Assembly: GCA_963827655.1 (NCBI GenBank)
Contig: CAWHCF010000005.1
Location: 1-28,338 of the forward strand
Length of the DNA stretch: 28,338 bases
Origin: an uncultured Acidobacteriota bacterium
Lineage (GTDB): Bacteria > Acidobacteriota > UBA6911
Reading direction: 5' to 3'
In this document: positions 10,171 to 27,590 of the stretch, piece after piece
Layout of the letters: each line of letters begins with the position of its first letter
How positions within the stretch are numbered: position 1 is the stretch's first letter
The notes under the pieces: model-generated
Databases searched by the model: none
What the model was told of the DNA's origin: nothing
What the model saw: the letters and a program-made list of their open reading frames with translations, nothing else
Translations under genes and position numbers: made by a program

Positions 10171-10468
10171 CTGAACCTTACACGCATCTTGTATTTGGCC
10201 CAGGACGAATGGTTACGCTACCTCGCGCCCTGAAAGGGCGAAAGAGATTAGCCGGGGGCAGCGCTTCGCTGGCCCCCGGTTTACATCAGCAAAGAGACGC
10301 GCCCCGGAGGGGCGCTGGAATCTCCCCCCTAATGCTCCTGCGCCCTTTCAGGGCGCGTGGACTATAATCCCGCAAACCCCGGGCTGCGCTTCGCTTGCCC
10401 AGGGCTAATTTCCGTCGCCCCTCCGGGGCGAAATCGCCAGGGCCCATGGAGATGCGTGTAAGGTTCAG
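10171..10468. mobile_element. 298-bp non-autonomous MITE with 19-bp perfect terminal inverted repeats and 4-bp target duplication
   Basis: CTGAACCTTACACGCATCT (10171-10189) and its exact reverse complement (10450-10468). AGCA flanks both ends (10167-10170, 10469-10472). No transposase inside. Confidence 0.8.
10224..10430. repeat. REP-like palindrome cluster (inverted doublet) inside the MITE
   Basis: CGCGCCCTGAAAGGGCG (10224-10240) pairs with CGCCCTTTCAGGGCGCG (10341-10357). CGCCCCGGAGGGGCG (10300-10314) pairs with CGCCCCTCCGGGGCG (10416-10430). GCGCTTCGCT occurs in both halves. Confidence 0.75.
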
Positions 10469-10532
10469 AGCAAGCTTGCGCCTTGACCTGCGCCATCGAC
10501 GGCTGCTGTGGTGACATCGGGATCCTGAGGTG

Positions 10533-10561
10533 ATGAAACGATTCGCGCAGGCCGTTCACTA
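10533..10561 (+). promoter_or_regulatory. Putative ECF sigma-dependent promoter of the matrixin/DUF4157 cassette
   Basis: ATGAAACGATTCGCGCAGGCCGTTCACTA matches 22/29 bases, ungapped, of the motif upstream of ECF sigma #2 (27344-27316). Confidence 0.55.
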
Positions 10562-10758
10562 CATAGCAGGTCAGTTTCGTCTTCGGCCAATCGACGGCCA
10601 CGCTAACGGTCGTCGACAGTCAACTGCCTCTGTCGGTTTAACAGGACTTGATGCAAGCACTCTGTCGCCGCAAGGTTTGGTTCATCGCGAAAAGCATCAA
10701 GATGAATGTTTCCCATCGGGAATCTCGAGTTTCAATTCAACCTTCAAGGAGCAAATAG

Positions 10759-12036
10759 ATGGCAAAGAAGAAGACAAAGATGTCTCAACTCAAGCAGCTC
10801 ACGGCTAACAAGAGCTTCGTCCCACAAACGTCAAGCTTGAAGCGAGGAGACAAGGGAGATGACGTCAAGCGTTTGCAGGAATACCTGACTAAATTCGGCT
10901 ATACGGAATCTCCTCTTACCGAGGCCTTTGGATCGGAGAAAGCCAGGGTATCAGCGCCGCCAGAACTGGACGGGAACTTCGACGAGAACACCCAGCAAGC
11001 CTTGAGCCGGTTTCAGAAATTCAATGGCCTGAAAGTAACAGGTAAAATGGACAAGGCTACGCTCGAGCTCATGTCGCGGCCCCGCTGCGGCTTTCCCGAT
11101 ACCGCCAGGTTCGTGGCTGAAGGTCGAAAGTGGAATAAAACGGCGCTGACCTTTTCCTACAGCAACTTCACACCGGAACTGACACAGGCGCAGGTACGGA
11201 CTGCACTCTCCCAGGCTTTCAGTTTGTGGGCAATCGTTACGCCCCTGACCTTCGCCGAGGTGAGTAGCAGCGCCGACATCGTGATCCGCTTTGTTGCAGG
11301 CAACCACGGAGATGGAAGCCCGTTTGACGGTGTGAGCGGCGTCCTGGCGCATGCCTTTTATCCGCCGCCCAACAATGGGGCCCTGGCCGGTGACCTCCAT
11401 TTCGATGAAGCCGAAACCTGGACCATAAACACCCCGCCCACCGGTATTGATCTGGTGACGGTTGCCGCTCATGAGATCGGGCATGCATTGGGTCTGGCTC
11501 ATTCCAATGTGACCGGCGCTCTGATGTTCGCGTTTTATGGTGGCGCCCATCGAAAACTGGAGACGGATGATGTCTCCGGCATTCAATCCATCTATGGTGT
11601 CGTCAACAGACAGTCCAATTGGAGGTGGTGTAACAAATGCCAAGGGATGTGGTTTGGCGGCAATCCCACGTCGGGGAAGTGTCCGGCCGGCGGGGCGCAT
11701 GTCAAGACCGGCAGTGGAAACTACAGCCCGGCGCACAATTCACCGGCTGCTCCCGGTCAAAATGACTGGCGGTGGTGCAATAAATGTCAAGGGATGTGGT
11801 TTGGCGGCAATCCCACGGCCGGGACGTGTCCCGCAGGTGGGTCGCACGTCAAGACAGGCAGCGGAAACTATACCCTGGCCCATAACTCACCGCCCGCTCC
11901 GGGACAAAGTAACTGGCGGTGGTGCAACAAGTGTCAGGGGCTGTGGTTTGCCGGCAATCCTACGACGGGGAAGTGCCCCGCAGGAGGGGGACACGTCAAT
12001 ACAGGTAGCGGCAACTATACCGTGTTGCAGGTGTGA
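10759..12036 (+). CDS. Matrixin (peptidase M10A) with N-terminal peptidoglycan-binding domain and three C-terminal Cys/His repeats
   Basis: AAGGAG RBS. PG-binding LKRGDKGDDVKRLQEYL...ALSRFQKFNGLKVTG, cysteine switch PRCGFPD, HGDGSPFDG...LAHAF, GDLHFDEAETW, HEIGHALGLAH and Met-turn ALMF. Confidence 0.93.
   Translation: MAKKKTKMSQLKQLTANKSFVPQTSSLKRGDKGDDVKRLQEYLTKFGYTESPLTEAFGSEKARVSAPPELDGNFDENTQQALSRFQKFNGLKVTGKMDKATLELMSRPRCGFPDTARFVAEGRKWNKTALTFSYSNFTPELTQAQVRTALSQAFSLWAIVTPLTFAEVSSSADIVIRFVAGNHGDGSPFDGVSGVLAHAFYPPPNNGALAGDLHFDEAETWTINTPPTGIDLVTVAAHEIGHALGLAHSNVTGALMFAFYGGAHRKLETDDVSGIQSIYGVVNRQSNWRWCNKCQGMWFGGNPTSGKCPAGGAHVKTGSGNYSPAHNSPAAPGQNDWRWCNKCQGMWFGGNPTAGTCPAGGSHVKTGSGNYTLAHNSPPAPGQSNWRWCNKCQGLWFAGNPTTGKCPAGGGHVNTGSGNYTVLQV
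11611..12033 (+). repeat. Three tandem 147-bp (49-aa) coding repeats QxxWRWCNKCQGxWFxGNPTxGxCPAGGxHVxTGSGNY
   Basis: Units start at 11611, 11758 and 11905 with an exact 147-bp period. Differences are mostly synonymous. Confidence 0.95.
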
Positions 12037-12051
12037 CCCTACGGCTGGCGT

Positions 12052-12110
12052 CTTCGTGTCTTCGTGGTTAGCGCGGAACAAATACCACCAAGACACGAAG
12101 CAACGCCAAG
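12052..12110. repeat. Short intergenic inverted repeat of the CTTCGTGTCTTCGTGG type (hairpin)
   Basis: CTTCGTGTCTTCGTGGT (12052-12068) pairs with ACCACCAAGACACGAAG (12084-12100). A related copy lies at 14904-14944. Confidence 0.7.
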
Positions 12111-12153
12111 GCTTGACGGCGAATTATTCCTTTTGGTAAACGGGATATAGAAA

Positions 12154-14249
12154 ATGGGATATCACCACCTGCGGACCCGAGTGAGACACAACCCAGCGCC
12201 GAAGAGGTCGAGCAAGAAACCTGCTGGCCTCGAAAAGCCCGGAACACACCTATCCCAAAGCCCGCCTCGTTTTTCCGGAAGAGAGGCGACTTCGCTCGGT
12301 GCGTATTTCGTTGACCCCGGAAAGCATCTTGTACTTGCGGCACACCATAGGCAACCGGGCCGTGAATCGGCTTGTTCAGGCCAGGCTCAAGATCAGTCAA
12401 CCGGGAGACCAGTACGAGCGCGAGGCAGATCGCGTAGCCGATCACGTGCTGCGCTCACCGGAACAGGAGACGAGCGGCCTCGAGCGAATAACCGGCGATC
12501 GGATCCAGCGCGTCACCCCAGAACAGAGAGATGAATTACAACGCCAGATCAGGCCGGAGGGACAGCGTCAAGGCACTGAGGAAGAAGAGCAAATCATTCA
12601 CGCGAAAGAACAGCCGGGCGCAGCGCCGGCGGTTTCTTCCGCAATCGATTCACAAATCGAGGTCCTGCCGGATCGTGGCAAACCGTTGCCGGAGGACGTG
12701 CGCGCGTACTTCGAGCCGCGGTTTGGGCAGGATTTCAGCGAAGTGCGAGTGCACGAAGGCGCGCAGGCGGCGGAATCGGCTCAAGCGATCAATGCGAGAG
12801 CTTATACGACGGGGGAAGATATTGTTTTCGGTTCCGGCGAATACGCGCCGGGAACGACGGAAGGCAAGAGGTTGCTCGCCCATGAGTTGACGCATGTGGT
12901 GCAGCAAGGAAAAGCCAGGCGGAATAAACTCGCCAATAATTTGCCCAACACAATCCACCAAACCAATACGCGCCAGGTCTCACGCCAAGGGTTCCTCACT
13001 CCGGCCCAGGAAACCGCAGCGATTGATTTCAACAACGCGCGCTACGATGAGCGTTCAATCAGAATCTTTCAGATTATTACCGGAGCAGCGGTCGACGGGC
13101 AGTTTGGGCGGTTGTCGGCCGAAGCCGTCGCTGGTTTTCAGAACGCAAATGGCCTGGGTATCGATGGGCAAGTGGGAGAGAATACTCTAAACGCGATGGT
13201 GCCGAATCGTGCTGCGGCAGGTCTGCACGAGCACGCCATTCAACTGGTTGTCGATTTTTACAACCTGAATATCACCAGAGACACACTCACGGTCCACTTC
13301 GATCCGGCTCTGGCCGTGGCCGGCGCCACTACTTTGCAACCGGGCAACCTGAGGGTAATCCGTATCGGTCCGCCATGCATTTGCCTCGGCTCCGGTTCTG
13401 CGAAATGCTATCAATGCGCAACTGGCATCGCCTGCTCCCGCGCCCGCGGCGGTAGGTCCGCGTCCCGCCCATTTGACGAATGCCAGGGAGTTAGAGGCCG
13501 TTCAATTCAACCAGGGACGATTCGGCGATCGGCGCTCTGTGCTGGCCATTCAAGCGTTAGTAGGAGCGAGGCCCGATGGTGTTTTTGGCAGCGATACGGT
13601 GGAACGCATCGCTGAATTCCAGAATGTCAACGTCCTGGCCATCGATGGCAAAGCAGGAGATGTCGAGACTCTACCGGCAATGGTGACCCAGCTCATTGCC
13701 GCGAACAACCAGGATTCGGCGATCCGCATGATCGTGGATTTCTATAATTTCCGGGATGACGGTAACTTGCTCGACGTGTTTTTTGATCCCGCGGTTGGGA
13801 CTAACGCCGATACGGATTTTCGACCCGACGAGCCCGTTCGTGTGCGGCTTGGCCCAAGCGGATTGGCCCAACCTTTTCCCGGCATTGTTCACACGATTGC
13901 CCACGAATATGAGCACGTCAGACGTCTCAAGGAAGGAATAGTCGGCAGAAATACGCATGAATTTCTTGGTGAGGCCATTGAAATTCTGAGTGAAGGAATG
14001 CGTGAAGAGGCTCTGGAAACATTGGCGCCGGCGGCCCCCGGTTTTGTCGCGGGGTTTGCTAATGATGCTAACCGGGCGTTAGTTAACTGGAACGCCATGT
14101 CATTGGCCGACCGGCGAACCTTCAGGAATCGGTTTATCGCGGTTCGCCAGAGGGTTCGTGACCGCATAGCTGCAGGGACGCCGGCACAACAGGCGCTGCA
14201 TGCGGCTTTGCTCGCCGGCTATAACGCCGTTGTTTTACCGCCGCCGTAA
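12154..14249 (+). CDS. DUF4157 (eCIS core domain) effector with two PG-binding modules and a C-terminal HEXXH metallopeptidase; frameshifts near 12240 and 13375
   Basis: IGNRAV, QARLKISQPGDQYEREADRVAD, YFEPRFGQDFSEVRVH, ARAYTTGEDIVF and LLAHELTHVVQQ define DUF4157. DGQFG...AVAGFQ...GLGIDGQVG and DGVFG...IAEFQ...LAIDGKAG are PG-binding motifs. C-terminal HTIAHEYEH...HEFLG. Shifting frame at about 13375 links the two ORFs with no stop (AFASAPVLRNAINAQL...HLTNARE). Confidence 0.85.
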
Positions 14250-14271
14250 AAGAACGCCAGAATAACTTCAC

Positions 14272-14856
14272 ATGAGACCGAAGTCCGGGCCGCTTCTCGT
14301 TGCTTCGCTGGGTATTCTGGCTCTGATTAGCATCTATTTTGGCCGACGATCGAATACATCAGAAACATCAATCGTATCTAATCAGCCGAACTCGATGCCT
14401 GAGAAAGTAGAGAGTGCCATGAAGGTACTTCAGATTGACGTAAAGGTTCTTACCCAGCCGGTACGCCTGTCGGGTCCATGCATGATTGAAGTCCGGATCA
14501 CGAACAAGAGTCATCAATCTGTGGTTTTGAATAAACGCCTGTCGGTAGGCTACAAGAACAGTCTATCCAGAGAATTGTTTATTGAAGTATTCGAGGAAGG
14601 TTCAAACGAAGTCGTCAGCCGAGAAGGGCTTCTATATGAACGCGCCTTTTCTTCTCCAGACGACTACGTCAGGGTCGAGCCCGAGCAATCTATTGGAACA
14701 TCGTTCAATCTCTTCGAGTGGTACACATTGCGATCTCCAGGACAATACGAGCTCGTGGTGTATTACCAGGCCGACGAAAATCTTGCGCCCAAACCCGCCG
14801 ATTTGTTCGAAGGTATTTTTTCTTCTGAGCGAATCCCTTTCACAGTCATACCCTGA
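14272..14856 (+). CDS. Hypothetical protein resembling a stand-alone M35 metalloprotease prodomain; candidate immunity/inhibitor
   Basis: Starts 22 bp after the effector stop and has an N-terminal hydrophobic segment. VRITNKSHQSVVLNK...FIEV...GLLYERAFSSPDDYVRVEPEQS...FNLFEWYTLRSPGQYELVVYY resembles, from memory, M35 pro-regions. Confidence 0.6.
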   Translation: MRPKSGPLLVASLGILALISIYFGRRSNTSETSIVSNQPNSMPEKVESAMKVLQIDVKVLTQPVRLSGPCMIEVRITNKSHQSVVLNKRLSVGYKNSLSRELFIEVFEEGSNEVVSREGLLYERAFSSPDDYVRVEPEQSIGTSFNLFEWYTLRSPGQYELVVYYQADENLAPKPADLFEGIFSSERIPFTVIP

Positions 14857-14903
14857 CCAGGGGACCGCTGCCCCGCTTTGTGTCGCTGGTCTCAAATTAA
14901 ATT

Positions 14904-14944
14904 CTTGGTGTTTCTTCGTGTCTTTGTGTCTTTGTGGTATTTGT
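14904..14944. repeat. Second copy of the CTT(C/T)GTGT-unit repeat
   Basis: CTTGGTGTTTCTTCGTGTCTTTGTGTCTTTGTGGTATTTGT closely matches the reverse complement of 12078-12110 with one extra 8-bp unit. Confidence 0.7.
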
Positions 14945-14968
14945 CTCCAGCAACAGGAGGACAAGCCG

Positions 14969-15958
14969 ATGATTTCTACCGGTCTCACCAGGATGCTGGG
15001 CATCCGTCACCCCGTGGTCCAGGCCGGCATGGGGGGCGTGGCGCGCGCCGACCTGGTGGCGGCGGTCTCAAACGCGGGGGCCCTGGGGATGTTGGGGATG
15101 GTCCGAATGGCGCCCGATTTCATCCGTGAGCAGATTCGCAACACCCGGGCGTTGACGGATCGCCCCTTCGGCGTCAACCTCGTTCCGCCTGTCGCGCCTG
15201 CATCCGGGTTCGAGACTCAACTCGAGGTCTGCCTCGAGGAAAGGGTGCCCGTGCTCTCGCTCTTCTGGTGTGACCCGGCGCCGTTTATGGAGCGTTGCCG
15301 GGCGGCCGGCGTGGTCGTAATGCTCCAGATCGGCAGCGTCGAGGAGGCGCGGCGCGCTGCCGCAAACGGCGTCGACATCATCGTGGCGCAGGGAGTGGAG
15401 GCGGGCGGACATGTTCGCGGCCAGATGGGCCTGCTCTCGCTCCTGCCCTCCGTCGTCGAGGGCGTGTCACCCGTGCCGGTGATAGCGGCCGGCGGTATCG
15501 TCGACGGCAGAGGGCTGGCCGCAGTCCTGACCCTGGGGGCCGAAGGCGTGTGGGTTGGCACTCGCTTCGTTGCCAGCGAGGAAGCCGAGGCTCATCCGGA
15601 GTATAAGAAGCGCTTGCTGGACGCCTCCGAGGCCGATACGGTCTACACGGAAATCTTCCATGTCGGCTGGCCTCCACGATCTCCCCACCGCGTGCTCAGG
15701 AATTCACTCACCGAGGGAGGCTCCCCGCCGCCCGGACCTGTCGCCCGCATGCGCTTCGGGAGCCAGACCGTGGAGGTGCCGCCATTCGGGAGCGCGCCTC
15801 CGACCGTGCACACGGAAGGCCGCACGGAGCTCATGGCCAATTATGCGGGCCAGGGGGTTGGTCTGATCCACAATGTCCTGCCCGCTGCGGAGATCGTGGA
15901 GCAGATGGTCTCCGAGGCCGAAGTCATCATGCGCCGCCTGCCGGCGATGCTGGGATGA
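14969..15958 (+). CDS. Nitronate monooxygenase / 2-nitropropane dioxygenase family flavoprotein
   Basis: AGGAGG RBS then ATG at 14969. HPVVQAGMGG, LVAAVSNAGALG, TDRPFGVNL, VAQGVEAGGH, PVIAAGGIVDGRG, GVWVGTRF and AGQGVGLI. Confidence 0.93.
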   Translation: MISTGLTRMLGIRHPVVQAGMGGVARADLVAAVSNAGALGMLGMVRMAPDFIREQIRNTRALTDRPFGVNLVPPVAPASGFETQLEVCLEERVPVLSLFWCDPAPFMERCRAAGVVVMLQIGSVEEARRAAANGVDIIVAQGVEAGGHVRGQMGLLSLLPSVVEGVSPVPVIAAGGIVDGRGLAAVLTLGAEGVWVGTRFVASEEAEAHPEYKKRLLDASEADTVYTEIFHVGWPPRSPHRVLRNSLTEGGSPPPGPVARMRFGSQTVEVPPFGSAPPTVHTEGRTELMANYAGQGVGLIHNVLPAAEIVEQMVSEAEVIMRRLPAMLG

Positions 15959-15992
15959 GGAGGTCGTGGAGGCGGCTGTCCCGGCATCAGGA

Positions 15993-18965
15993 TTAACGCG
16001 GGACCAGGTAAGTCCCGGCGATCCGGTCCTGAGGGCCACGCTCGGGAGTGATCGCGGACCAGAGCGCCCCGCAGATAAAAAGGGCGACGAGCGCGGAACT
16101 AACCCATAGGAGTTCAATTTCAGAGACGCCTTTACTGAGGTCGACGCCGATGCCCCTTACGTCAACGCCGGTGACAAGCCGCTACCAACCACGTGGGACG
16201 GTTGTCCGGAGATCCAGAAATACAGGACGATCGCATTTAGACAATACGGGTAGCCAGGCTATCAGCGTTCTGAAAGAAGCGCGCAGTCTCGACGCAGGCG
16301 ATCCATCCTTGTATACAACGGCGATACCCAGACCTCTAAGTAGCAGGCCGCCCCGAAAGAGAACTCCGGAAAGCAGCCCGAAAAGGCCTTCGGCCGCTGT
16401 GCTGATCGAGAAAGCCAATAAGAGAAAAAGCGCAGGGCCCCCGGCACCGTACTCCATGAAGAACCCCGACACCAGCCCCGACGCCAGAACGAAAAGAGTT
16501 GTGATGAGCGGCAGAAAACTCGAGCACGCCAGGTGGCCCAAACGTAGTCGGCGGGAGAGTGATGCTCTCCCGCCCAGGATGGACTCCACGCGCTGGAGTA
16601 GCTCACCTGAGGTGCGAAACTCTTGCTGCCTGAGTTCTTTCAGGAAGGAACTGGCGTGAACCGGCAGGGGACGAGAGAGATGCTTGGAAACATGCTCAGA
16701 GTTGCTCATTCCTCCGGTCAGCGCCCAGGTACTCAACCGGTAGAGGAACAGTTGCAACGAGGGAAAGTCCGTGACCGTCATCGGAGCTAGCTGGAGGGCG
16801 TTGTAGTTTTCGTCGAGGGGCGGTGCTGCGAAATCGAGCAGCTTCAGGCGACCATCGGTCGTTATCCAAAGCCTGTCAAGAGCGACGGTAACCGGAATCG
16901 ACTGGTTCTCGGAACTCGCGTTAAATTCCGTGATCAAATCCAGCAACCAGTATCGGACCGAACTCCAGGGCTGTTGCTCGCCTAGCAGCGCGGAAAGCGG
17001 TCTTCCTTCAGGCGCTTCATAGGCATCCCAGCATTCCTCTGCGCTCCGTCTCCCATTCAACCAGCGCAGTCGTCCCGGACGGTTCAGGTCACGTCTGGAG
17101 TCTGAAACGGGCGGAGTCGTAATCGATGGAACCTGGATCCAGGTTTTGCGCTGCAGCTTGGGGTCATAACCCAGGAACAACTCTTCGGAAGGAACTCTTC
17201 TCAAACTCCTGATAACCAGGTAAGGCCCGATCCGGTTCGGGTCGGTCGTGGCGGGCTCGGGGTAGCTGCTGGGCTCGATAACGGGCCGCACCGGCAGATT
17301 CAAATGACGAACCACACGCGTACCGCTCAGTAGTTCGTGAATTCCGGCAAGGCCATTCTCACGTCGCACGGTTGCGAATAAAACCAGGAAGCACAGCAGG
17401 CTAATGCAATCGTAAGGGCTTGGTTGGTACGTGGTAAAAAACGCCCATCCCTTGCCATTAGCAGCGGAGCCACTCCAGAGCCACATGGACGTACCGAGTC
17501 CAGCCCACGCCCCGAGTGCCGCAGAGGGAACCTGAAAGAATAGAGCAAAAATGAACGCCCGAAGGAATGCTCGGAGTGGTCCGGGTCTCTGTCCCGCCGG
17601 GCCAACCACTTTTAGTCCGCAGAGTGCTTTGCCGGCAGATCGGTCCCAGAGCCCTTCGAGAAGACCGAAATATGCAATGAGCCAGCCGATGCGAACCGTA
17701 TCCTCCCAGGGCTTGGTCAATGATAAGCCGAAGGCGAATAGCGGGAGTTTCACCAACACAAAAGCCGCAGTCAGGATGGAAAGGAAATCGAAGCTTCCTG
17801 CAACGAAGCGGATCTTTAGATCCGCCGGTATGGGAGAGGACGAACTGAAGGGTCTGAGTCTCTCCTTGAGCTCGGCATAGTTTGAAAATCGCTTTTCGGA
17901 GTTTTTTTCCAGGCAACGAAGGATTGCCCGCGACAGACCTTTTGGAATTTCGGGCCGCAGATTCCCTGGTGATTTGGGGTTCTCCTTAAGAATTCGGGCA
18001 ATCAGTTGAACCGTGCCTTCCGCTTCAAAAGGAGGCTTGCCTGTCAGCAGGTAATAAAGGGTAGCTCCCACAGCATAAATGTCTGAGCGAACATCGAGTT
18101 TTTTTCCCTCGAGTTGCTCGGGCGATGCGAAACTGGGTGTTCCCAGGAAAGAACCCGCGGCGGTCAACTGAGTTTCCTCGCGCGACAGAGTCGAGATGGA
18201 CAAACCAAAATCTCCAATCTTGACCGTTCCATCACTGTCCACAAAGCAATTGGCTGGTTTGATATCGCGATGTAGCAGTCCCTTTGCGGCGGCTGCCTGC
18301 AGACCATCTATCACCGCCAGAATCGCATCCACCGCTCTGGCGACACTCATAGGACCTTCCCTCTTCAAATGATCCTTGAGCGTTCCACCCGGAGCGAATT
18401 CCATCGAGATGACTGGCGTTCCGTCGATTTCCTCTGAGCCGTAGACGTAGACACAATTCGAGTGACTGACCTGAGCGGCCAGCCGTCCTTCCCTCAGAAA
18501 TCGTTGTTTGTCTGTGGCGGAGTCCAGGTGCTGATTTAATATCTTCAGTGCCACGCGCCGGCCACTCTCCAGATCTTCGGCCTCGTAAACTTCGCCCATA
18601 CCCCCTTTGCCGAGCAGACGCATGATCCGGTAGTGCCCGAACTCGCCAGGGCCGTGGCCCTGGACGAGTTGAAGTGTTCCTGTCTCTTGCGACTCTGAAG
18701 GTGGAGGAGTCTTGAGCTGGTCAACTTCCACTTCTGCCCCGGTGGCATCGTGACTGTGCGCCAGCAGGCGGATGGCCTGGTCTACGACCGGTGTGTTCAT
18801 GAAGCCTTCCGGCTTTTCTTTCTGGCCGAGCAGCGATTCGACTTCGCGGCGCAAGGATTCGTCGTTGCCGCAGGCCTCTTCGAGAAATGCTGCGCGCTCC
18901 CGCACGTTGAGTTCCAGAGCGGCGTGAAACAGTGTTTCTATTTGCTGCCAGCGTTCAGGCGTCAT
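15993..18965 (-). CDS. Ser/Thr protein kinase with RDD domain, degenerate second kinase domain and second RDD; disrupted near 16182-16240
   Basis: MTPERWQQIETLF N-terminal domain typical of ECF-linked kinases. LGKGGMGEVY, VALK, HRDIKPAN, DFG and GTPSFASPE. RDD motifs RFVAGSFD, SAGKALCGLKVV and GIHELLSGTRVV. Beyond the TAG at 16182 the same frame ends ERGPQDRIAGTYLVPR* at 15993. Confidence 0.88.
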
Positions 18966-19530
18966 GCGCATTGCTGAGCTCGCGGCGAAGCCAGGCCTGG
19001 GCCATGCTCCAGTCCCGCATCACGGTGGTGGGCGAGACCTTCAACACCTCAGCTATCTCGTCATTGGTCAGCCCGCCAAAGAAACGGAGTTCGACGACCT
19101 GGCTCTTGCGCGGGTCGATGGCAGCCAGTCTTGTTAAAGCCTCGTCCAGAGCGATAAAGTCCGGAGGCACTTCCGAACCAAGAACAGCTGCGTCTGTAAG
19201 GGAGAGCTGTGGCGCGCCGCCTCCCCGCTTGACTCTGTTGCGCGTGCGGGCATGGTCGACCAGGATACGACGCATCACCTGTGCGGCTATGGCGAAAAAA
19301 TGGGCGCGACTTTGCCACTGGACGTCTTGCACGTCGATCAGCCGCAGATATGCTTCATTGACCAGAGCCGTAGTTTGGAGCGTATGGCTGGAGCGCTCGA
19401 CGCGCATATAACGACGCGCGAGTCGGCGCAATTCTTCGTACACGAGAGGCATCAAGCTATTGAGCGCCTCCCGATCGCCCTGGCGCCAGCCGGCGAGGAG
19501 TTGACTGATTTCCCCTGGCGAAGGCTTCAT
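18955..19530 (-). CDS. ECF RNA polymerase sigma factor (TIGR02999/ECF43-like, kinase-associated)
   Basis: EISQLL..W..GD..AL..LMPLVYEELRRLA, HTLQTTALVNEAYLRL, RAHFFAIAA, KRGGG, VVELRFFGGL and TVMRDW. The stop overlaps the kinase start. Confidence 0.93.
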   Translation of the reverse strand: MKPSPGEISQLLAGWRQGDREALNSLMPLVYEELRRLARRYMRVERSSHTLQTTALVNEAYLRLIDVQDVQWQSRAHFFAIAAQVMRRILVDHARTRNRVKRGGGAPQLSLTDAAVLGSEVPPDFIALDEALTRLAAIDPRKSQVVELRFFGGLTNDEIAEVLKVSPTTVMRDWSMAQAWLRRELSNAHDA

Positions 19531-19787
19531 CACAACTTCTCGATCGGAGGGAGAGCTAATGGCGCCCATCATAGCAGAACCCCGAATCAACCAGAATTAT
19601 TGTTCGCGGTAGAAGCCCGGACAATCCAGGCCTTGGGACTGTAACGTATTTTTGGCAGTTGAGGCCTGAAAGGCCGACAGAGAGTAGGCCCGTCCGTAAG
19701 AAGCTGTGAAAAAATTCAGCGACCGGCTCTTGATTGACCGGCAGCTCTTTTAGTTTTGTGGCCTTTTGCAAAAGTCGCTGGGTTTAT

Positions 19788-19898
19788 GTGCGGACGGGCT
19801 ATCAAGCCCGTCCGGCCCCCTAGTGGCACAAAAAGAACTTCTTAAGGCTAAATGCTCCCGATCACGTTACTTGCGACGGGTCTGATGACCCGTCGCCA
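19788..19898. repeat. Inverted pair of REP-like hairpins
   Basis: CGGACGGGCT-ATCA-AGCCCGTCCG (19791-19814) and GCGACGGGTC-TGAT-GACCCGTCGC (19873-19896), each with a perfect 10-bp stem. Confidence 0.7.
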
Positions 19899-20666
19899 GT
19901 GCGCCTTAAAGCGCACATGATCAGAGAGGTGAAAGTCCTGTCCAGGTATACGCTCTTCGGCCTGAAACCGAATGCAACTGCGTCGCCGTGAGGCGGGGTG
20001 GGGAGCAGCAGGAGGTGAACGATCCATCCGTAGGATAACGAACTCGATTCGGCCGGTCTGTATCGGCGAGCCTGCTGGCGTAAGGCAAAACCTAGACCCG
20101 CAAAAGCGGGAGACTCGACGAGCTGAGGGGTAGCGTGCGAAAGCGACGTTGGGGGACTGACTGGTGGTTGGAGACGGAGGGATCGGAAGATCAAGTGCGT
20201 GAATCAGGGAGACCTGCTCGTAGCAGGAGCCGGAGTTCATGCTCGGAAGAGCCGAAGAGCGGGCGGGCAGGAGTCAGAGCGCTCATAAGAGCGGGGAAGG
20301 GCCGTAATGGGCCTGGAGCAAAGGAGCGCAGGGAGGTGGATGCATGGATGCGTGATTGACAGAAGACAAACCGACGCTAGTGCCCAAGGGCTATGCGAGT
20401 CGGAGAGAGCGACGGGTTGAAACCCGTGGCCGGAACTGGCAGCGCACGTGAGATGCATGTAGACAGCCTTGGTCATCCGGGAAACTGCAAACCAATCGCG
20501 AAAGTTTTCAGTTACATCGCAGGTGTGGGATCCTGACCAACGCTTCTGAATGGCACGTCAACCCTCTTCGAGGTGAACCACCGACTGGAGAGCCTTGATC
20601 GCGGGAGATCCGCACGTCCGGTTTGGGGGAGGGGGGATGAACTCAATCGATCCTCTCTACCCCTAT
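19899..20666 (+). mobile_element. ORF-less group II intron (about 768 nt) with the intron-encoded RT deleted
   Basis: 5' GTGCGCC...GGTGAAAGTCC. Domain V-like GAGAGCC..GCGGGAGATCCGCACGTCCGGTT (about 20588-20624). Domain VI ends CTACCCCTAT at 20666. Domain IV holds only decayed IEP ends (TEDKPT..., PW...M*TAL, RQPSSR*). Confidence 0.85.
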
Positions 20667-20753
20667 CAGAACAATTTTTCACACCTTCTGACGGGCGGGG
20701 CTAGTCACTGACGGGCCTTCGGCCCAGGCGAGAACACTCGAACCCGCCAATCT

Positions 20754-23043
20754 CTAGTTGATCTCTACTAATCTGTGAACCGGATAACGTGATCGCATTG
20801 ATCGCAGCAGCTCCTTGAAATCCCGGTCGCCTTCCTTCGCTAGTTCTGCCCGTCTGGCGAGGGCCGGATCTGGCGCCGGCGCGGGAGGCACCGGAATGCT
20901 CGGGCGGTCCTGCCTTGCGGTCGCCTGCAACACCTTTGACAGATCATCGGCGGCGGCCACGCGCTCACCCAAATCGGGCGGGTGGGCGCTGAGGAAACGT
21001 CGGATGATGGTTTTGATGATTGAGGTGTGGTCAAACACCACATCCGTCACCTGTTTGGGTGCCACCCAGGGAGAAACGACGAACGCGGGCAACCGTACGC
21101 CGTAGCGGTCAATGGCCGACACGACAGGAGCTGCAGGCGGCGGCACGTGGTCGAAGAAGCCGCCGTGCTCGTCATAGGTAATCACCAGCAGCGTCTTGTT
21201 CCAACGCGGGCCCTCCACCAGCGCCTTCACCACTGTCCCGATCAAGTGTTGTCCAGCTGCGATGTCCGCGGGCGGCTGGTCGTCGTTGCCGGGCGGAACG
21301 TTGATGAAGTCGGGGTCAATAAACGTCACCGATGGGAGCGTTCCGGCCCGCGCGCTGGCAACAAAGTTTGCGGCATCGTTGCCGGCGTCAAGGATATTCA
21401 CGTCGTCGTAGGTGTATCGCTCGAACACACGCAAAAAACAGTAGCCGTGCTCGTAGTAACGCCATGAGACGCCCTGGGCGGTGAGGTGGTCGAAGATGGT
21501 TTTAGTCTTGACCGGCTGGAAATTGCTGCCTTCGGGATTGTTGAATTCCCAGCCCCCATTCGCATCACGGTTGAGCCGGCCGGTCAGTGTGTAGAAACGG
21601 TTGGGGAAGGTCGGCCCCGGATGCGCGGCGAACCAGCGCTGGCAGATCAGGAACTCACGCGCCAAAACATCGTAAACCGGAACCTGGGCGGCATTGTAAT
21701 AGCCCATTACCTCGCCGGGATCTCTGCCAGCGGCTTCGGCGCGCGGCGCGAAGTCCGCCACAAAGCCATCCATCTTTCCCCCATTCACCTGATTTACGAC
21801 ACACTCGCGCTCGTGGCAGGGACTTTGAATGAACACCGTTCCGGGCAGCGGTAAAGAAGCGTAGTCGAGCCCCTTGTAAGGATTCTTCTCGCCGCCGCGC
21901 AACCCATCGATCTCGGCTCGCCCGCCGTGCTTGTTCAGGTAGCCGAGCATGTGGTCGAACGAACGGTTCTCCATCATCAGCACCACGATATGATCAATGT
22001 TGGCCAGTCGTCCCGGATCAAGAGGCGGCTGCGGGTTTTCGGGGAAAGGTTCAAGCTGGCCCAACGGCAAGACGTAATCAATAATCAGCGCTTGATTGTC
22101 ACTTGCGACGCTCAGTCACGTGGAACTCGCCACCCACTAACCACGGGGTTACTATCTTCTTGAGGGCGTTGCTGTCCTCTGGCTTCTCCGGGTCTCCTTT
22201 CAGAGCCTCAGCTATCTTTGCATCTACAGTGCCCTCGATCCTGCGCGCAACCCAACCGTCAGGCAGCACATCAACATTCACCGACGCGTCTGTGTTGATA
22301 AATTCTTTTAGCAGTTTCTTCCTGAGCGCCTGCTTGGCCGCATCCAACAGCGGTCCTGCGGCCTCAAACATCTTCTCTCTGAATTTTACCTTGACGATCA
22401 CTGAGTTAGGGAGTTGCAATACCTCTACATTGTTTATCGCCGCGTCCACTTCGTCCATCCAGCCCACCAGGTCAACGGCGCCGTCTCTACTGCTAAACTC
22501 CATCTTCAGCCTGATATTGAGTCCGTCGAAGTCAACGTTGGGGTATTGTTCCAGTTTGAGTTCCTCTCCCTCCGTCTCGAAATAGACCCGTACCTCGATG
22601 CCCAGCGGTTGTGCCCGAATGACATTCACTGTGAACCGGTTGGTGTTCAGGTCATTGAAGCGGTAGCTGGTATTGGGGAGAGGGGCTTGCACATCGATCC
22701 ATAGATTGTCGAATTTCCTGGGATCGATGAAGGGCCTCCACCCCTTAACCGGATCATCGAAAGATACGGCGAGCTCGCCCTTACCCCACTCAGTGCCGTG
22801 GAGGCGTAATTTGAACAGCGGCTTTTCCCGGTTGTTGAAAAACTCATCAAACTTGCGCTGCAATAAATCAAGCGGGATAACCTTCCTGAGGATTCGGCCC
22901 GGCGGAAGCGCGCCGACGAACTTGCGCAGCGAGAGCGGGTACGACCACTTCGGGAACGGCAAATTGTGCTGGCGCACCACCTGTTTGATGCTGATTGATT
23001 GTCCTGCTGCGTGCAGGGCCTCACGGACGCTTTTGCTTGTCAT
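20754..23043 (-). CDS. Phospholipase C / phosphoesterase family protein with a long unknown N-terminal domain; frameshift near 22105
   Basis: HIVVLMMENRSFDHMLG, GPTFPNR, LPSVTFIDP and ITYDEHGGFFDHVPPP. ATG at 23043 follows GAAGGGAG. Shifting frame near 22105 joins GGEFHV to SVASDNQALIIDYVLPLG without a stop. Confidence 0.85.
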
Positions 23044-23071
23044 AACGATTCTCCCTTCGTCCAGGAATGGT

Positions 23072-24154
23072 TTACTGCAGGGCGATAAGTACGGGAATAA
23101 GCCCCTGGCCACCCTTCAGAGGTCTTAGCGCTTTCCCGATCACCGATCCAAACGCCCGCGCCGCATCATCCGCTCTCATGGCGTGCCCCGGCGTCGGCGA
23201 GGTCGTCAGTAGATCGCCGATCCCGATTGCTCCAAAGCTCGCATCGGTCTTGCAGTACACCTTGCCAAGCAGCGCAATCGGCTGGCGGTTGTGCGTGGAT
23301 GATTGCTTATCCAGCACGATCCCAGGCTTGTAATCGCCCGCGCCGGAGACCACGCCGGCAACGCGCTTGTCGTAAGCGTTTTGACTTTGGTGCAATCTCC
23401 CATCTTCACCCAGCACCATCACCGTTCCGGGTTCAATCTGCTCCGTTTCGCAGATGTCGAAATCTTCGGCGCAATCGGCGTTGAGCAGACGGATGTCGCC
23501 GGTAACCTCGACATCGCCCTCAAAGCGACCAGCAACTCGTCCTTTGCCATATATCCCTACTGCACCTGGACCAACCCCCTCGCCCATCACGCCGGCGCCA
23601 CCGGTTGGGCTTTCGCTTTTTCCATAGACACCCATCCATCCTTTACTCTCCCCAACTACGCCGGTACCGCCTGCGGTATTAGCGCCATAAACCCCAAATC
23701 CACCGGACGTACTTTCGCTGATTCCTATAACGCCACACCAGCTCTTGCCCTTTGCGAACACGCCATTGGCGCCCCCCTCGGCTTGGACACCATTCACCTG
23801 GCTATCAGCGTACACGCCAGCCCCGCCGCCGCTCTGGGCGTCGAAACTATTGACGCCAACCACTGGACCATACGGTTTGATGGTAGGTTCTTGGCCTTCG
23901 TCATAAACGACGATGGAAGAGACTCGATCATTCCAGGGCAGAGTGATGGCCGGGGTATTCGCCCGGATGTCTATGAATTCTCCGCGGAAAAGAGAGTGTT
24001 CGTAGAGCCTGGCCACCAAAGCGTTAGGCACTTTGATGGAGCTGAGAGTGTCATTCCCGATGGAGATTTGACCGAGGGCGTTATCGTACTGCCCTTTGGG
24101 CAACACCTGAGAACGGCCTTCAAAATTTGCATGTTCGTAGATGGTTACTGGCAT
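23072..24154 (-). CDS. Beta/gamma-crystallin domain plus GVxG beta-helix repeats plus C-terminal intramolecular-chaperone-like (tail-fibre-like) domain
   Basis: VTIYEHANFEGRS...NDTLSSIKV and LYEH...NDRVSSIVV (crystallin). Repeated GVYA/GVFA/GVIG/GVYG/GVVG. ADCAEDF...PGTVMV...VAGVVSGAG..KPG...IALLGKV...GDLLTTS...VIGKAL. CAGGAG RBS. Confidence 0.75.
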   Translation of the reverse strand: MPVTIYEHANFEGRSQVLPKGQYDNALGQISIGNDTLSSIKVPNALVARLYEHSLFRGEFIDIRANTPAITLPWNDRVSSIVVYDEGQEPTIKPYGPVVGVNSFDAQSGGGAGVYADSQVNGVQAEGGANGVFAKGKSWCGVIGISESTSGGFGVYGANTAGGTGVVGESKGWMGVYGKSESPTGGAGVMGEGVGPGAVGIYGKGRVAGRFEGDVEVTGDIRLLNADCAEDFDICETEQIEPGTVMVLGEDGRLHQSQNAYDKRVAGVVSGAGDYKPGIVLDKQSSTHNRQPIALLGKVYCKTDASFGAIGIGDLLTTSPTPGHAMRADDAARAFGSVIGKALRPLKGGQGLIPVLIALQ

Positions 24155-24443
24155 GTTTCATCTCCTGATTAATTGAACTGGCAGTTTGTTTGTTATGACG
24201 GGGCGAAGCTGGACTACAGCCGCCCCGTGCTCCTGAATCCACTCTTGGTTCTTCGCCTCGGTTTGCTACCTCTCACGCCACAACACGTCCACGCCCGTTC
24301 AGCGACGGCTCGATTTTGAAGCAGCTGCGAGCCGTTTTCGCGGAGGGCAAGCTTATCGTCGCAAGTCCTGGTCAGATTTTCGGTCAAGATCACTTTCAAC
24401 CTCGGCGGCGGATTTTTTGTTTCATTTTCCGCTTCGTCTTATA

Positions 24444-24472
24444 AAGCGACAGTCCGGTGAGAAAACCACCAC
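24444..24472 (-). promoter_or_regulatory. Weak candidate ECF-type promoter for the crystallin/fibre-PLC operon
   Basis: GTGGTGGTTTTCTCACCGGACTGTCGCTT keeps the TG, TTCxC and TCRCT positions of the 29-bp motif, with lower identity. Confidence 0.25.
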
Positions 24473-24565
24473 AAGAAAAACTTCTTTTGCGCCCTGCCAA
24501 ATACGACCAGCTCTAAGGACGATGATCTGTTGTCGAAGCGCGAGGCTCTCGAGTCGGCGAGCTCG

Positions 24566-26743
24566 TCACGACCTGGGAACAACCCGTGAGGTTACTGGCT
24601 CGCGGCGATGGATCGAGCCCCGCCGGTTCCGCCAAATCCCGGCCACCCGCGGGCGAGCACCAGGGCTGTCGTCGGATCCAATCCTTGCCGCGGCGCGAGC
24701 GATGTTGCGGGATAGATAGCGCAGTCGGAGGTTTTCGGGGTCGGCGTCCAGTAGCGCTTTCGTGAGCGTGCGGGCTTCTTCAAAAATTCTGCGGGCGCGA
24801 GCCGTATCGCCGGATTGCCCGACGGTCCACGCGAGTTGCAGCTTGAGCCGCGCCAGTTGCTGGCGGTCTCCAAACCTTTCCGGGTCGTGCACAAGACGCT
24901 TCTCGAGATCGCTTACCTCCTGCAGGAGCATGGACGCGCGCTTGTCGAAAGCGATGGATTCTGTGCCCTGGTAACAAACGGTTTGCAGACGGGGAGTGGC
25001 GAGGTCAAGCGAGTTCGCTTCCCGGCAATAGGTTTCGGCCTGGCCGGTGTTGCCCGCCCTTCGCTCGAACGATGCCAGGTCGAGCAGCATGCGAAGTTGC
25101 ATGCTCTTGCCAAGGGAGCGCGACTGCTCGAGCCCGCGCACAAGAAAATCGCGCCCGCCCGCGACGTCTCCGGCCCGCGCGCGCTGGTGCGCGGCCGCAG
25201 AGAGCGCGTGCAGGAAGTGAGGCTTTCTTGCTACGGCGTTGCGAGCCGGCGCCGGCAGCGTATCGGTCAGTTCGATTGCCTCGACAGCGTATTCCCCTGC
25301 CATCCTCATTTGGCCGCGGCGGACTTGCAGATGCGCCGCATACAGTAGACTCTCGCCCAGCTCGGCGCGTGCCGCCGGTGTATCGCCGGCGGCACGATAC
25401 CGGCGGGCGTATTCGATGGACCGCCGGATGCTTTCGATGCTCTGAGGCGTCTGGCCGCGAATGGCTTGAGTGTAGCTGAGGCGGCGCCAGGCCCTCGTCA
25501 GCTCCGCCAGCGGCGGCGAATTCATCCCTTCCATCTGAGCGATTGCGTCGTGGATACCTGCGGCAAGGGCGGCCCGCTGGGTGGATTCGGGACTCTGTGC
25601 GGCCGGCTGATCGCGGAGCAGGTGGGCGATCACGGATTTGTGCTGGCTCGCATAGTGATCGGCGCGGCGGGCGTCGTGGCGCGACAGAAGCCAGCCGATG
25701 AGAAGCGACAGGACCGCCACACTCGATAGAGCGCAGGCGATTCGGTTACGCCGAAGGAACTTCGAAATAACATACCAGACGGACGCAGCACGGGCGCGCA
25801 CAGGAAAGTGGTGGAGATAGCGCTGAACGTCGTCGGCGATTTCGCCCGGCGTCTGGTACCGGTTCGAGGGTGAAGGCGAGAGACACCGGTCGCGAATGGC
25901 GCAAACATCGGCCGGTGGCGTCGTATGCGCGAGCATGTCGCGGAGGACGCAACCGAGCGAATAGACGTCGCCGGGCACGGAAGGTCCGAGCCCTGCCCTC
26001 TGTTCGGGGCTGGCATAACTCGGGGTCATGATCAGCCGCGAGAGCCCGGAGGCTTGGAGATCGCCAGGATCAATCAGGCGGGCCGTCCCGAAATCGAGCA
26101 GTTTGGGCGTGGCTTCCTGCTTGACCATCACGTTGGACGGTTTGATGTCGCCGTGAACTATGCCATTGGAATGCAGGTACCCGACGGCCTGGCAAATCCG
26201 GTTAAAGAGCTCCAGCATTTCGCCCAGTGACGAATGGGATTTCTCCAGGTACTGATCGAGCGGCTGACCATTGACGAACTCGATCGCAAGAAAAGAGTCG
26301 CCGCAAGCGTCGGCGCCGGCGTCGATCAAGCGCGCGATGTAAGGGTGATCGATTCCGCTCAGGATGTTGCGCTCCTGAATGAAGCGCTGGTGGAATACAC
26401 CTCTGTCGAAGCCGGCGCGGAGGATCTTGACGGCGGCGTGAAGTGTCACGCCATCCGCCTCGCACGAAGCCCGGTAAACCACGCCGAGCCCGCCTTCACC
26501 GATGCGCTCGATCAGCTTCCAGCGTCCGATGCGTTCGCCGGGTTGAGCGGCGAGACCGGCCAGAGGACGATCGAGGAAGGCGCCGGCCTGCGCGTCGGCG
26601 TCGAGCATCCGTCGGAGTTTGCCGTAAAGGATGGGCCGGCTATGGCATGTGCGATCGAGAAACGCCCCGCGGTCGGCCTCGGGAAGCGCGACGGCTTGCT
26701 GGAATAAATCATCGAGTTCACGCAGAGCGAGGCCGTCGTTCAT
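24566..26743 (-). CDS. Membrane Ser/Thr protein kinase with TPR-like extracytoplasmic region
   Basis: The ATG at 26743 overlaps the sigma stop (ATGA). LF..A..LP...R.AFL...C N-terminal domain, IGEGGLGVVY, HGDIKPSN, DFG, MTPSYASPE, a TM segment IACALSSVAVLSLLIGWLL and a helical Ala/Arg-rich tail. Confidence 0.9.
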   Translation of the reverse strand: MNDGLALRELDDLFQQAVALPEADRGAFLDRTCHSRPILYGKLRRMLDADAQAGAFLDRPLAGLAAQPGERIGRWKLIERIGEGGLGVVYRASCEADGVTLHAAVKILRAGFDRGVFHQRFIQERNILSGIDHPYIARLIDAGADACGDSFLAIEFVNGQPLDQYLEKSHSSLGEMLELFNRICQAVGYLHSNGIVHGDIKPSNVMVKQEATPKLLDFGTARLIDPGDLQASGLSRLIMTPSYASPEQRAGLGPSVPGDVYSLGCVLRDMLAHTTPPADVCAIRDRCLSPSPSNRYQTPGEIADDVQRYLHHFPVRARAASVWYVISKFLRRNRIACALSSVAVLSLLIGWLLSRHDARRADHYASQHKSVIAHLLRDQPAAQSPESTQRAALAAGIHDAIAQMEGMNSPPLAELTRAWRRLSYTQAIRGQTPQSIESIRRSIEYARRYRAAGDTPAARAELGESLLYAAHLQVRRGQMRMAGEYAVEAIELTDTLPAPARNAVARKPHFLHALSAAAHQRARAGDVAGGRDFLVRGLEQSRSLGKSMQLRMLLDLASFERRAGNTGQAETYCREANSLDLATPRLQTVCYQGTESIAFDKRASMLLQEVSDLEKRLVHDPERFGDRQQLARLKLQLAWTVGQSGDTARARRIFEEARTLTKALLDADPENLRLRYLSRNIARAAARIGSDDSPGARPRVAGIWRNRRGSIHRREPVTSRVVPRS

Positions 26744-27305
26744 GCTTCTTGCACCCCGGTGAGAGCTTCGAACAGCCAGGCGCGGCAGAATTGCCAATCG
26801 CGCTTCACGGTGATGAGTGAGACCTTCAGCCGCTCCGCAATCTCCGAGAATTCCAGGCCGCCAAAAAACCGCATTTCGACCACACTGGCTTTGCGTGGGT
26901 CCTCTTCAGCCAGGCGATCGAGCAGGCTGTCGATATCGAGGATCCGATTCAGATCGACGTCGACTGCATTGCCCGGAGTATCTTCCAGACCGACGCGAAG
27001 CCACGCCCCGTCCCGCTTCTGGGCCATTTTCGCGCGCAGGTAATCGATCATGAATTGACGCATGGCTCTGCTGGCGAGAGCCAGATAGTGCGTCGGGCTC
27101 TTCCACGGGTATCCGGAGAGACGGAGGTAAGCCTCGTGCACGAGCATCGTAGGTTGAAGTGTGGGTGAGGGGCGCATCGTCGCAGGTGGATGGCCGCGAT
27201 GCGGCGAAGCTCGCGATAAATGATCTGGAGCTCGTCAGGGGGAATAGGCTTGGAAGATGAGTTTATCAATGGACCTCCGAATGACTCGGACAGCAGACGA
27301 GCCAT
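26740..27305 (-). CDS. Second ECF sigma factor (TIGR02999/ECF43-like); frameshift near 27178; start uncertain (ATG 27305 or TTG 27269)
   Basis: IYRELRRIAAIHLR (ORF 27048-27344) joins PTLQPTMLVHEAYLRL, ASRAMRQ, VVEMRFFGGL and TVKRDW (ORF 26740-27177). Confidence 0.88.
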
Positions 27306-27315
27306 CACCGTGACA

Positions 27316-27344
27316 TAGTGAATCGCGCCGGCGAATCGTGTCAT
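27316..27344 (-). promoter_or_regulatory. Putative autoregulatory ECF promoter
   Basis: ATGACACGATTCGCCGGCGCGATTCACTA lies directly upstream of the sigma gene and matches 10533-10561 at 22/29. Confidence 0.55.
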
Positions 27345-27518
27345 TTGGGGAGGTTTTTTTCGAACCGGTAGAAGACGGGTCTATTGAGCGCGATTTTACG
27401 GATGCCAGCAGGAACACGCTGATCGATACCTGGGATACTAATGGTGGCATTGCGAACCTTGCCGGGGACTCGCCGGCCTCTGACTCCGCGTCGCGCAATA
27501 ACCCCGTTTTGTCCCTCC

Positions 27519-27590
27519 GAAAAAATTCAGCGAATGGCTCTCGATTGACCGGGAGCCCTGGTTATGGTGCGGGTCATCAGACCCGCGCAA
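27519..27590. repeat. Paralogue of the 19708-19741 motif followed by a REP-like hairpin
   Basis: GAAAAAATTCAGCGAATGGCTCTCGATTGACCGG (27519-27552) matches 19708-19741 at 31/34. It is followed by the hairpin GCGGGTC-ATCA-GACCCGC, with the same core as the intron-target hairpin. Confidence 0.7.

Follow-up and report, generated by a model that had tools for sequence, protein, structure and literature searches.

The window analysed here is the entire contig C5, 28,338 nt long, of the assembly of an uncultured Acidobacteriota bacterium (genome G000; 8.18 Mb, 53 contigs, 90% complete), and it contains two copies of a conserved promoter-like element. One copy lies upstream of a gene pair for an extracytoplasmic function (ECF) sigma factor and a Ser/Thr kinase, designated sigma #2 and kinase #2, and the other upstream of a cassette for a matrixin and a PF13699 peptidoglycan-binding protease. 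The element is most likely read by another ECF sigma factor, designated ECF-Z, which is encoded outside the window and would transcribe both the sigma #2-kinase #2 operon and the matrixin cassette. The original prediction had linked the two loci through a shared 29-bp motif and had taken sigma #2 itself as the reader. The features concerned are:

10533..10562, + strand: motif copy 1 (site 1), ATGAAACGATTCG-cgcaggccg-TTCACTAC, predicted ECF-Z-type promoter of the matrixin cassette
10534-10539 and 10557-10562, + strand: -35-like block TGAAAC and -10-like block CACTAC of copy 1
10759..12036, + strand: matrixin, PG_binding_1 and Peptidase_M10 domains (HEIGHALGLAH), with AAGGAG 8 nt before the ATG
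12299..14249, + strand: PF13699 protein, eCIS_core (formerly DUF4157) domain (E = 8.3e-35) with an N-terminal HExxH, and two repeated PG_binding_1 modules
24566..26743, - strand: kinase #2, Hanks-type Ser/Thr kinase (Pkinase, E = 4e-37), its ATG overlapping the sigma #2 stop codon (ATGA)
26740..27269, - strand: sigma #2, ECF sigma factor of the PF07638/TIGR02999 type (ECF43-like), in frames 27269-27180 and 27177-26743 with the stop codon at 26742-26740
27315..27344, - strand: motif copy 2 (site 2), ATGACACGATTCG-ccggcgcga-TTCACTAT, predicted ECF-Z-type promoter of the sigma #2-kinase #2 operon
27343-27338 and 27320-27315, - strand: -35-like block TGACAC and -10-like block CACTAT of copy 2

The two copies of the element

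The motif consists of two blocks, TGAnACGnTyC and TTCACTAT, separated by a variable spacer. Both copies are in sense orientation: copy 1 precedes the matrixin ATG (10759) by 197 nt, and copy 2 precedes the sigma #2 TTG (27269), itself 4 nt past GGAGG, by 46 nt. As the start of P0005, an intact 176-aa metagenomic orthologue of sigma #2 used as the reference for identity figures, aligns with TTG 27269, copy 2 is placed upstream of sigma #2 and not within the gene. The two 29-mers at 10533-10561 (+) and 27344-27316 (-) agree, ungapped, at 22 of 29 positions, as had been reported, and the 22-position pattern of the original prediction, with up to three mismatches allowed, has no other match in the 8.18 Mb genome.

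The raw score is nonetheless about what the decay of scores leads one to expect, and is not significant alone. When each 29-mer was compared with all 16.35 million positions of G000, 24-25 matches were obtained at 20/29, 2-3 at 21/29 and a single one, the partner, at 22/29. The significance of the match stems from which positions agree. A 17-position consensus was derived from the sigma-upstream copies alone, namely window site 2, the metagenome loci L112 and L110, and locus L050 of the species-representative genome G137; with up to two mismatches, the sole other match in G000 is site 1, which agrees at 16 of the 17 positions, while 20 letter-permuted versions of the consensus gave no match in G000 at one mismatch or fewer. 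Similarly, a matrix built from 30 training sites of other genomes, none from G000 or its near relatives, gave its two highest scores in G000 to site 2 (29.0 bits) and site 1 (27.1 bits), in that order. The searched blocks TGA.ACG.T.C and TTCACTA match in G000 only at a 10-nt gap, which corresponds to 9 variable bases in the layout of ten sites described below. Thus, the motif is above background by the positions that it conserves, though not by the raw count on which it was proposed, and both 29-base stretches are, as judged from their sequence, true copies of a conserved promoter-like element.

The element is also conserved across lineages. Both blocks are kept upstream of the sigma #2 orthologues of four lineages (the window, L112/L113, L110 and L050, the loci L110-L114 being metagenomic), always 46-47 nt before the TTG start; the L112/L113, L110 and L050 sigma factors share 57-85% protein identity with P0005. 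At these loci ATGAyACGwTyC and TTCACTAT are retained, whereas the 9-nt spacer and the flanks have diverged. An alignment of ten sites from eight lineages has the same blocks in common and a spacer that is fixed at 9 nt but variable in its letters. Because the blocks and their distance to the TTG are kept while spacer and flanks diverge, and because reading frames are not kept across the ten sites, the element is best described as a two-part DNA signal. The original expectation that the motif would recur upstream of orthologous sigma genes was therefore borne out.

Both copies start with ATG and encode similar peptides (MKRFAQAVHY and MTRFAGAIHY), and a coding reading was therefore tested, in which the shared bases would encode a short peptide, either as an upstream open reading frame (ORF) or as an N-terminal extension of the sigma factor. 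Nine of 17 residues agree when the peptides are aligned (pairwise E = 1e-4), and in the window the ATG frame of copy 2 runs into sigma #2. However, this reading is contradicted by the ten-site comparison, in which CTG takes the place of the ATG at three sites, the frame of seven differs from that of the downstream gene, and four meet a stop within 35 codons, two of them in the last 50-nt stretch before the gene start. The spacer changes are non-conservative (AGAI to VRQF in L110), P0005 starts at the position of TTG 27269, and a six-frame search of G000 recovered no further copy of the peptide, so that a coding role can be given next to no credence. The motif is non-coding and non-repeat.

Other candidate explanations were rejected. 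Descent of the motif from a duplicated sigma 5' end is not indicated, with similarity limited to ~53 nt from the ATG and the likeness of TLSPQGLVH to TLQPTMLVH reaching E = 0.089. With regard to an RNA element, no Rfam family was found in the window, and the 203-nt matrixin leader folds no better than shuffled sequences (z = -0.59). The targets of distant motif sites are not homologues of one another in the pairs compared (L118 and P0006, E = 5.1; L119 and L120, E = 0.42). A weaker third copy had been proposed at 24472-24444 (24444..24472, - strand), which agrees with 11 of the 22 positions of the originally described pattern (hand count) and with 8 of 16 consensus positions, and is absent from the matches with three mismatches or fewer; it is rejected as chance because 8 or more of the 16 positions agree at 1021 places in the window.

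Sigma-70-type promoters, sought as TTGACA/TATAAT-like hexamers 16-18 nt apart, were absent from 10000-16300 and from 24000-28338, and a DNA comparison of both upstream regions with 40 relatives left the motif regions unmatched. Directly upstream of site 1, the window carries a dispersed repeat of ~80-95 bp (10402-10495) with a hairpin-like sequence, ATTTCCGTCGCCCC-TCC-GGGGCGAAAT. The repeat has 20 further matches of 84-100% identity on other G000 contigs and short partial ones in the relatives G005 and G007.

ECF-Z and other candidate readers

Exact matches to a 15-position pattern of the motif, with extra agreeing positions, were found in two of 400 genomes sampled from the phylum (G376 and G204; none for the reversed control), and the pattern was also exact in one genome, G555, among 80 others sampled from the family to which G137 belongs, while 136 other genomes of the class gave none. 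The best sigma #2-type sigma factors of G376, G204 and G555 are only 41-45% identical to P0005. In a quick maximum-likelihood tree with SH-aLRT (Shimodaira-Hasegawa-like approximate likelihood ratio test) support, which included the sigma factors of G376 and G204 and left out that of G555, both fell outside the sigma #2 clade (97% support).

In G555, the motif heads an operon comprising a small ORF, the gene for a divergent 220-aa ECF sigma factor, which is ECF-Z, and a zf-HC2 anti-sigma gene. Orthologues of this ECF-Z were identified in G376 (54% identical, 4.7 kb from the motif of that genome), in G137 (50% identical, 3.4 kb downstream of the second motif copy of that genome and on the same strand) and in G000 (51% identical, contig C14:34260-34820). 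The G000 locus is:

C14:34260-38810 (locus L146, 5261-9811): ECF-Z cluster, consisting of ECF-Z (gene at 34260-34838), a zf-HC2 anti-sigma factor, a 197-aa protein and an 855-aa CHAT-TPR protein

The G376 locus has the same gene order, with a CHAT-TPR protein of 907 aa, and a CHAT-TPR protein is thus present at both ECF-Z loci with enough flank. ECF-Z passes only the general TIGR02937 model, the best specific model being NF058625 at 64 bits against a cut-off of 130. It was detected at E<=1e-35 in 13 of 400 other genomes sampled from the phylum and, at E<=1e-25, in none of 40 relatives.

When 18 ECF-Z loci were scanned with 1.5-kb flanks (61.7 kb in total), 19 motif matches with up to three mismatches of 16 positions were recovered in 12 of the loci, as compared with two matches in 135 kb of PF07638-sigma loci and one for the reversed pattern. 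Typically, matches are seen in front of ECF-Z and a second time in the stretch from ECF-Z to the anti-sigma gene, and the motif therefore recurs at the own locus of this sigma factor across orthologous loci. In 16 ECF-Z-bearing genomes, the pattern TGAAACGNT-N14-CACTAT gave 18 matches against none for the control, and 13 of the 18 are within 5 kb of ECF-Z.

This enrichment is one of the grounds on which we infer that ECF-Z reads the motif, an assignment that we consider probable. In the mechanism proposed, the zf-HC2 anti-sigma factor would release ECF-Z, which would then direct RNA polymerase to both window sites. The predicted ECF-Z promoter comprises a -35 element TGA(A/C/T)ACG, a spacer of 16-17 nt and a -10 element (T)CACTAT; at the window sites the corresponding parts are TGA(A/C)AC, 17 nt and CACTA(T/C). 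Transcription would begin a few bases past CACTAT at both sites, to give one transcript of the sigma #2-kinase #2 operon with a leader of ~40 nt and another of the matrixin/PF13699 cassette with a leader of ~190 nt. At three ECF-Z-type sites elsewhere (L114 4099-4150, L132 1501-1540 and L163 near 1494-1530), a start codon follows CACTAT by 6-8 nt, and transcripts from these sites would be leaderless. The activity of sigma #2 presumably also requires phosphorylation by kinase #2. Sigma #2 would thus be gated twice, because ECF-Z would control its transcription and kinase #2 its activity.

The shared signal between the two loci therefore stands, while its originally proposed reader does not fit well. 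If sigma #2 itself read the motif, its phosphorylation by kinase #2 would switch on both its own operon and the matrixin cassette. It is common for ECF sigma factors to autoregulate (established knowledge; Casas-Pastor 2021, supplement, cited here and below for the part covered), and the motif directly precedes sigma #2-clade genes at a constant distance in the four lineages named above. In addition, a full copy precedes the gene adjoining the sigma-kinase pair of L114, and at the other PF07638 paralogue loci examined in G000 and G137 the motif was not found. However, the genomes G376, G204 and G555 have exact copies without a close homologue of sigma #2, the sigma #2-clade member L051 (G138) comes from a genome with no motif at one mismatch or fewer, and the motif predicted for ECF43 (GTC in the -35 and CAG in the -10 element; Casas-Pastor 2021, supplement) is unlike that of the window. 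Moreover, sigma #2 is frameshifted in this assembly. As the motif concentrates around ECF-Z, the step from a motif upstream of a sigma gene to autoregulation was probably a wrong one, and recognition by sigma #2 is regarded as improbable. The same low probability is assigned to a reader other than either sigma factor, be it a DNA-binding regulator encoded near ECF-Z or an alternative sigma factor merely co-inherited with the ECF-Z cluster. The link between motif and ECF-Z consists of co-location and co-occurrence, the clusters hold further conserved partners (the CHAT-TPR protein in G000 and G376, the 197-aa protein in G000), and the ECF-Z gene of G000 has no clear motif upstream of itself. 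Against such a reader, the element is laid out as an ECF promoter, TGAAAC being the -35 element of ECF30 and ECF116 (Casas-Pastor 2021, supplement), the spacing is fixed, start codons lie 6-8 nt past the second block in three cases, and in the ten-site alignment the blocks form no conserved palindrome, unlike the usual site of a dimeric regulator.

It may also be asked whether site 1 is a chance look-alike or a functionless relic, with only the copy at sigma #2 working. One 22/29 match per 29-mer is about the genome-wide chance expectation, the leader from site 1 to the matrixin start is long (197 nt), and the last base of its -10 block is C, where nine of the ten aligned sites have T or A. 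This is, however, very unlikely given the agreement of site 1 at 16 of 17 invariant positions, the only such match among all positions scanned, its second rank with a matrix trained elsewhere, and its intergenic, sense-oriented position on the same 28-kb contig as site 2.

Several observations weigh against the assignment of both sites to ECF-Z. Conservation of the motif before sigma #2 orthologues, taken alone, fits autoregulation by sigma #2 equally well. Six of the 18 ECF-Z loci lack a match inside the 1.5-kb flanks, and ECF-Z of G000 has no good motif upstream of its own start, the sole copy at that locus being a 2-mismatch one of 16.9 bits between ECF-Z and the anti-sigma gene. The motif is exact in G204, where the ECF-Z homologue is only 40% identical and falls below the 1e-35 cut-off with the G000 query. 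Because the genomes behind the motif matches and the ECF-Z loci are related to one another, the counts given above are of non-independent events. A real frameshift in sigma #2 would mean that, in this strain, the cascade leads to a dead gene. Sequencing runs were examined in the form of Logan contigs assembled from related strains; the alignment of X2-17 and X4-24 starts at 10554, with at least 100 unaligned letters upstream, and conservation of site 1 in close relatives is not visible from these contigs. The RNA run X16 yielded low-depth contigs over kinase #2 at 24709-26114 only and none over either motif site; with DNA carry-over possible, these contigs are evidence neither for nor against transcription of the motif sites.

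Genes behind the two sites and further candidate targets

The second frame of sigma #2 matches PF07638 (E = 2.3e-34), and P0005 passes TIGR02999 at 166.8 bits (cut-off 126.15). Both frames align in order along P0005, at 77% and 86% identity, and the gene is not intact in this assembly, with one base missing from a C run near 27162-27165; all four related contigs (L110-L113) have one base more. The position is not among the indels listed for related-strain contigs. A TonB-type outer-membrane receptor gene (CarboxypepD_reg and OMP_b-brl_4; window 1045-4308, - strand) consists of three overlapping ORFs, implying two frameshifts. Because this gene, the PF13699 gene and sigma #2 are all split in the window, indel errors of the assembly are likely.

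The kinase gene directly follows that of sigma #2 with no anti-sigma gene, a layout also seen in L114. Kinase #2 has one transmembrane segment at approximately residues 353-371 of the ORF, as judged by hydropathy. Its C-terminal part of ~370 aa gave weak TPR matches (E = 2e-4 to 5e-3, all below the Pfam cut-offs), and no homologue of this part or sensor domain was detected at E<=1e-10 in 50 genomes of the family. The window includes a second ECF43-like pair, spanning 16182..19590, near which no copy of the motif was found:

18955-19590, - strand: sigma #1, PF07638, with QTTA in sigma-2.2
16182-18971, - strand: kinase #1, Pkinase and RDD domains

In the sigma-2.2 region, sigma #2 reads LQPTMLVHEAY (QPTM) and sigma #1 LQTTALVNEAY (QTTA), with Thr at the ECF43 phospho-position in both. 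In ECF43 proteins, the acidic DAED of sigma-2.2 is replaced by a Ser/Thr motif with a conserved Thr and the consensus QTTA (PMC13147305, in the part covered). By sequence, sigma #1 and sigma #2 bear the hallmarks of ECF43-type kinase-coupled sigma factors, which fits the class first given to sigma #2. There are ~20 full-length PF07638 (ECF43-like) sigma paralogues in G000, and several split ones were also observed (C35:57298, C22:41107/41429 and C52:174694/174797).

The matrixin has no hydrophobic signal peptide and ends in three tandem Cys-rich repeats of ~44 aa (window 11700-12036; NWRWCNKCQGMWFGGNPT.GKCPAGG.HV.TGSGNY) with no Pfam match. The PF13699 gene appears as two overlapping ORFs, 12299-13615 and 13473-14249, the second of which repeats the PG_binding_1 module of the first; these are probably two parts of a single frameshifted gene. 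On the + strand, nothing terminator-like was found between 12036 and 12299, and the PF13699 gene may well be co-transcribed with the matrixin gene.

This cassette had been described as a set of effectors of the eCIS type (eCIS, extracellular contractile injection system), a claim that was not supported. Loci for eCIS are enriched in the marker PF13699/DUF4157 (Geller et al. 2021, PMC8213781, in the part covered), and the Pfam name of PF13699 is the only connection of the cassette with eCIS. Structural genes for eCIS (sheath, tube, baseplate, DUF4255) are absent from the window, and profile searches of the 90% complete G000 assembly found neither Phage_sheath_1 (PF04984) nor Baseplate_J (PF04865). 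Pvc16_N (PF14065) also gave no match in G000, a zero made uninformative by a silent control. The only contractile-tail marker in the assembly is a weak 30.9-bit match to the tail-tube family Phage_T4_gp19 (PF06841) at C26:22078-22452 (-), and four copies of PF13699 are present in G000. The cassette is therefore not classed as an eCIS effector set.

Further candidate sites of 20-25 bits were found in G000 at C6:130843, C33:787, C11:26204, C22:308440 and C14:29227, and the genes behind them encode a trypsin-like peptidase, a protein without a Pfam match, a HEAT-repeat protein, a protein with PG_binding_1 and CHAP domains, and an S13 D-Ala-D-Ala carboxypeptidase. A protein with an MliC domain is the candidate target of a motif site in G295. 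Together with the matrixin cassette, these candidates hint that the targets share a role in the cell wall or peptidoglycan. G394 has a distant ECF-Z-type site whose downstream gene, with its ATG 6 nt away, encodes another PF07638 sigma factor, which is 44% identical to P0005 and has QPTA in sigma-2.2, and in G137 it is the sigma #2-clade gene (L050) that carries the motif. The sigma #2-clade gene of G138 (L051) lacks it, and the closest relatives of ECF-Z in G138 are only 35-38% identical.

A two-tier ECF cascade can tentatively be drawn from these findings. An anti-sigma-gated ECF-Z with a CHAT-TPR partner would transcribe an ECF43-like sigma factor that stays silent until a membrane kinase phosphorylates it, and ECF-Z would also directly switch on peptidoglycan-binding proteases and cell-wall enzymes (the matrixin, the PF13699 protein and possibly the CHAP amidase, the S13 carboxypeptidase and the trypsin-like peptidase). 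As part of this tentative scheme, wiring from ECF-Z to a PF07638 sigma factor may recur in the distant lineages G000, G137 and G394. Were the cascade true, two separate outside signals would be needed in sequence.

The summed contig depth over window positions 14896-15507 and 19180-20403 was 10-100x that of neighbouring bins in all three soil DNA runs, and many contigs have loose ends at 14901/14944 and 20324/20688. These stretches look like repeats or sequence common to many organisms.

Relation to known sigma factor systems

ECF sigma factors are the main means by which many soil bacteria sense their surroundings, and G000 alone encodes ~20 full-length kinase-coupled ones. The searchable literature holds almost nothing on the controllers or targets of such kinase-coupled sigma factors, and literature searches that paired ECF43 with Acidobacteria, or DUF4157 with sigma factor, returned no description of this regulon. 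The analysis provides a concrete wiring diagram for uncultured soil bacteria, with a predicted promoter (TGAAACG-N16-CACTAT), a candidate sigma factor (ECF-Z) and a short list of targets, and suggests that a kinase-gated sigma factor can itself stand under an anti-sigma-gated one.

Two components of this wiring are of kinds already known, the autoregulated ECF/anti-sigma modules and the ECF43/kinase pairs. Like the modules of the Bacillus SigW/SigX types, with TGAAAC as the -35 element (ECF30 and ECF116; Casas-Pastor 2021, supplement), ECF-Z is a small sigma factor followed by a zf-HC2 anti-sigma factor, and its motif has a TGAAAC -35 element, a fixed spacer, and copies at its own locus and at a few distant targets. 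ECF-Z differs from the Bacillus types in a -10 element of (T)CACTAT instead of CGTC or CGTA, in the CHAT-TPR protein that comes after it in G000 and G376, and in passing only TIGR02937. The part of the Casas-Pastor 2021 supplement that was covered includes no CACTAT or TGAAACG motif, and the remainder could hold a group for ECF-Z, which bears on its novelty.

The second kind is represented by EcfP-PknT of Vibrio parahaemolyticus and EcfK-PknS of Xanthomonas citri (PMC8999054, PMC13147305, each in the part covered). Sigma #1 and sigma #2 are like these in belonging to PF07638/TIGR02999 with a kinase gene directly downstream and in their Thr motifs (QTTA and QPTM, respectively), and kinase #2 shares the single membrane segment. 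In the parts covered, EcfP-PknT and EcfK-PknS are not described as transcriptionally dependent on another ECF sigma factor, whereas the sigma #2-kinase #2 operon carries a predicted ECF-Z promoter, one that differs from the GTC/CAG motif predicted for ECF43 (Casas-Pastor 2021, supplement). Similarly, the second gene of the matrixin cassette resembles eCIS-associated DUF4157 proteins (PMC8213781, in the part covered) in its N-terminal PF13699/DUF4157 HExxH domain, but this domain is fused to peptidoglycan-binding modules and not to a toxin domain. What looks new, as compared with these systems, is ECF-Z with its promoter, its CHAT-TPR neighbourhood and the placement of a kinase-gated ECF43-like sigma factor under it.

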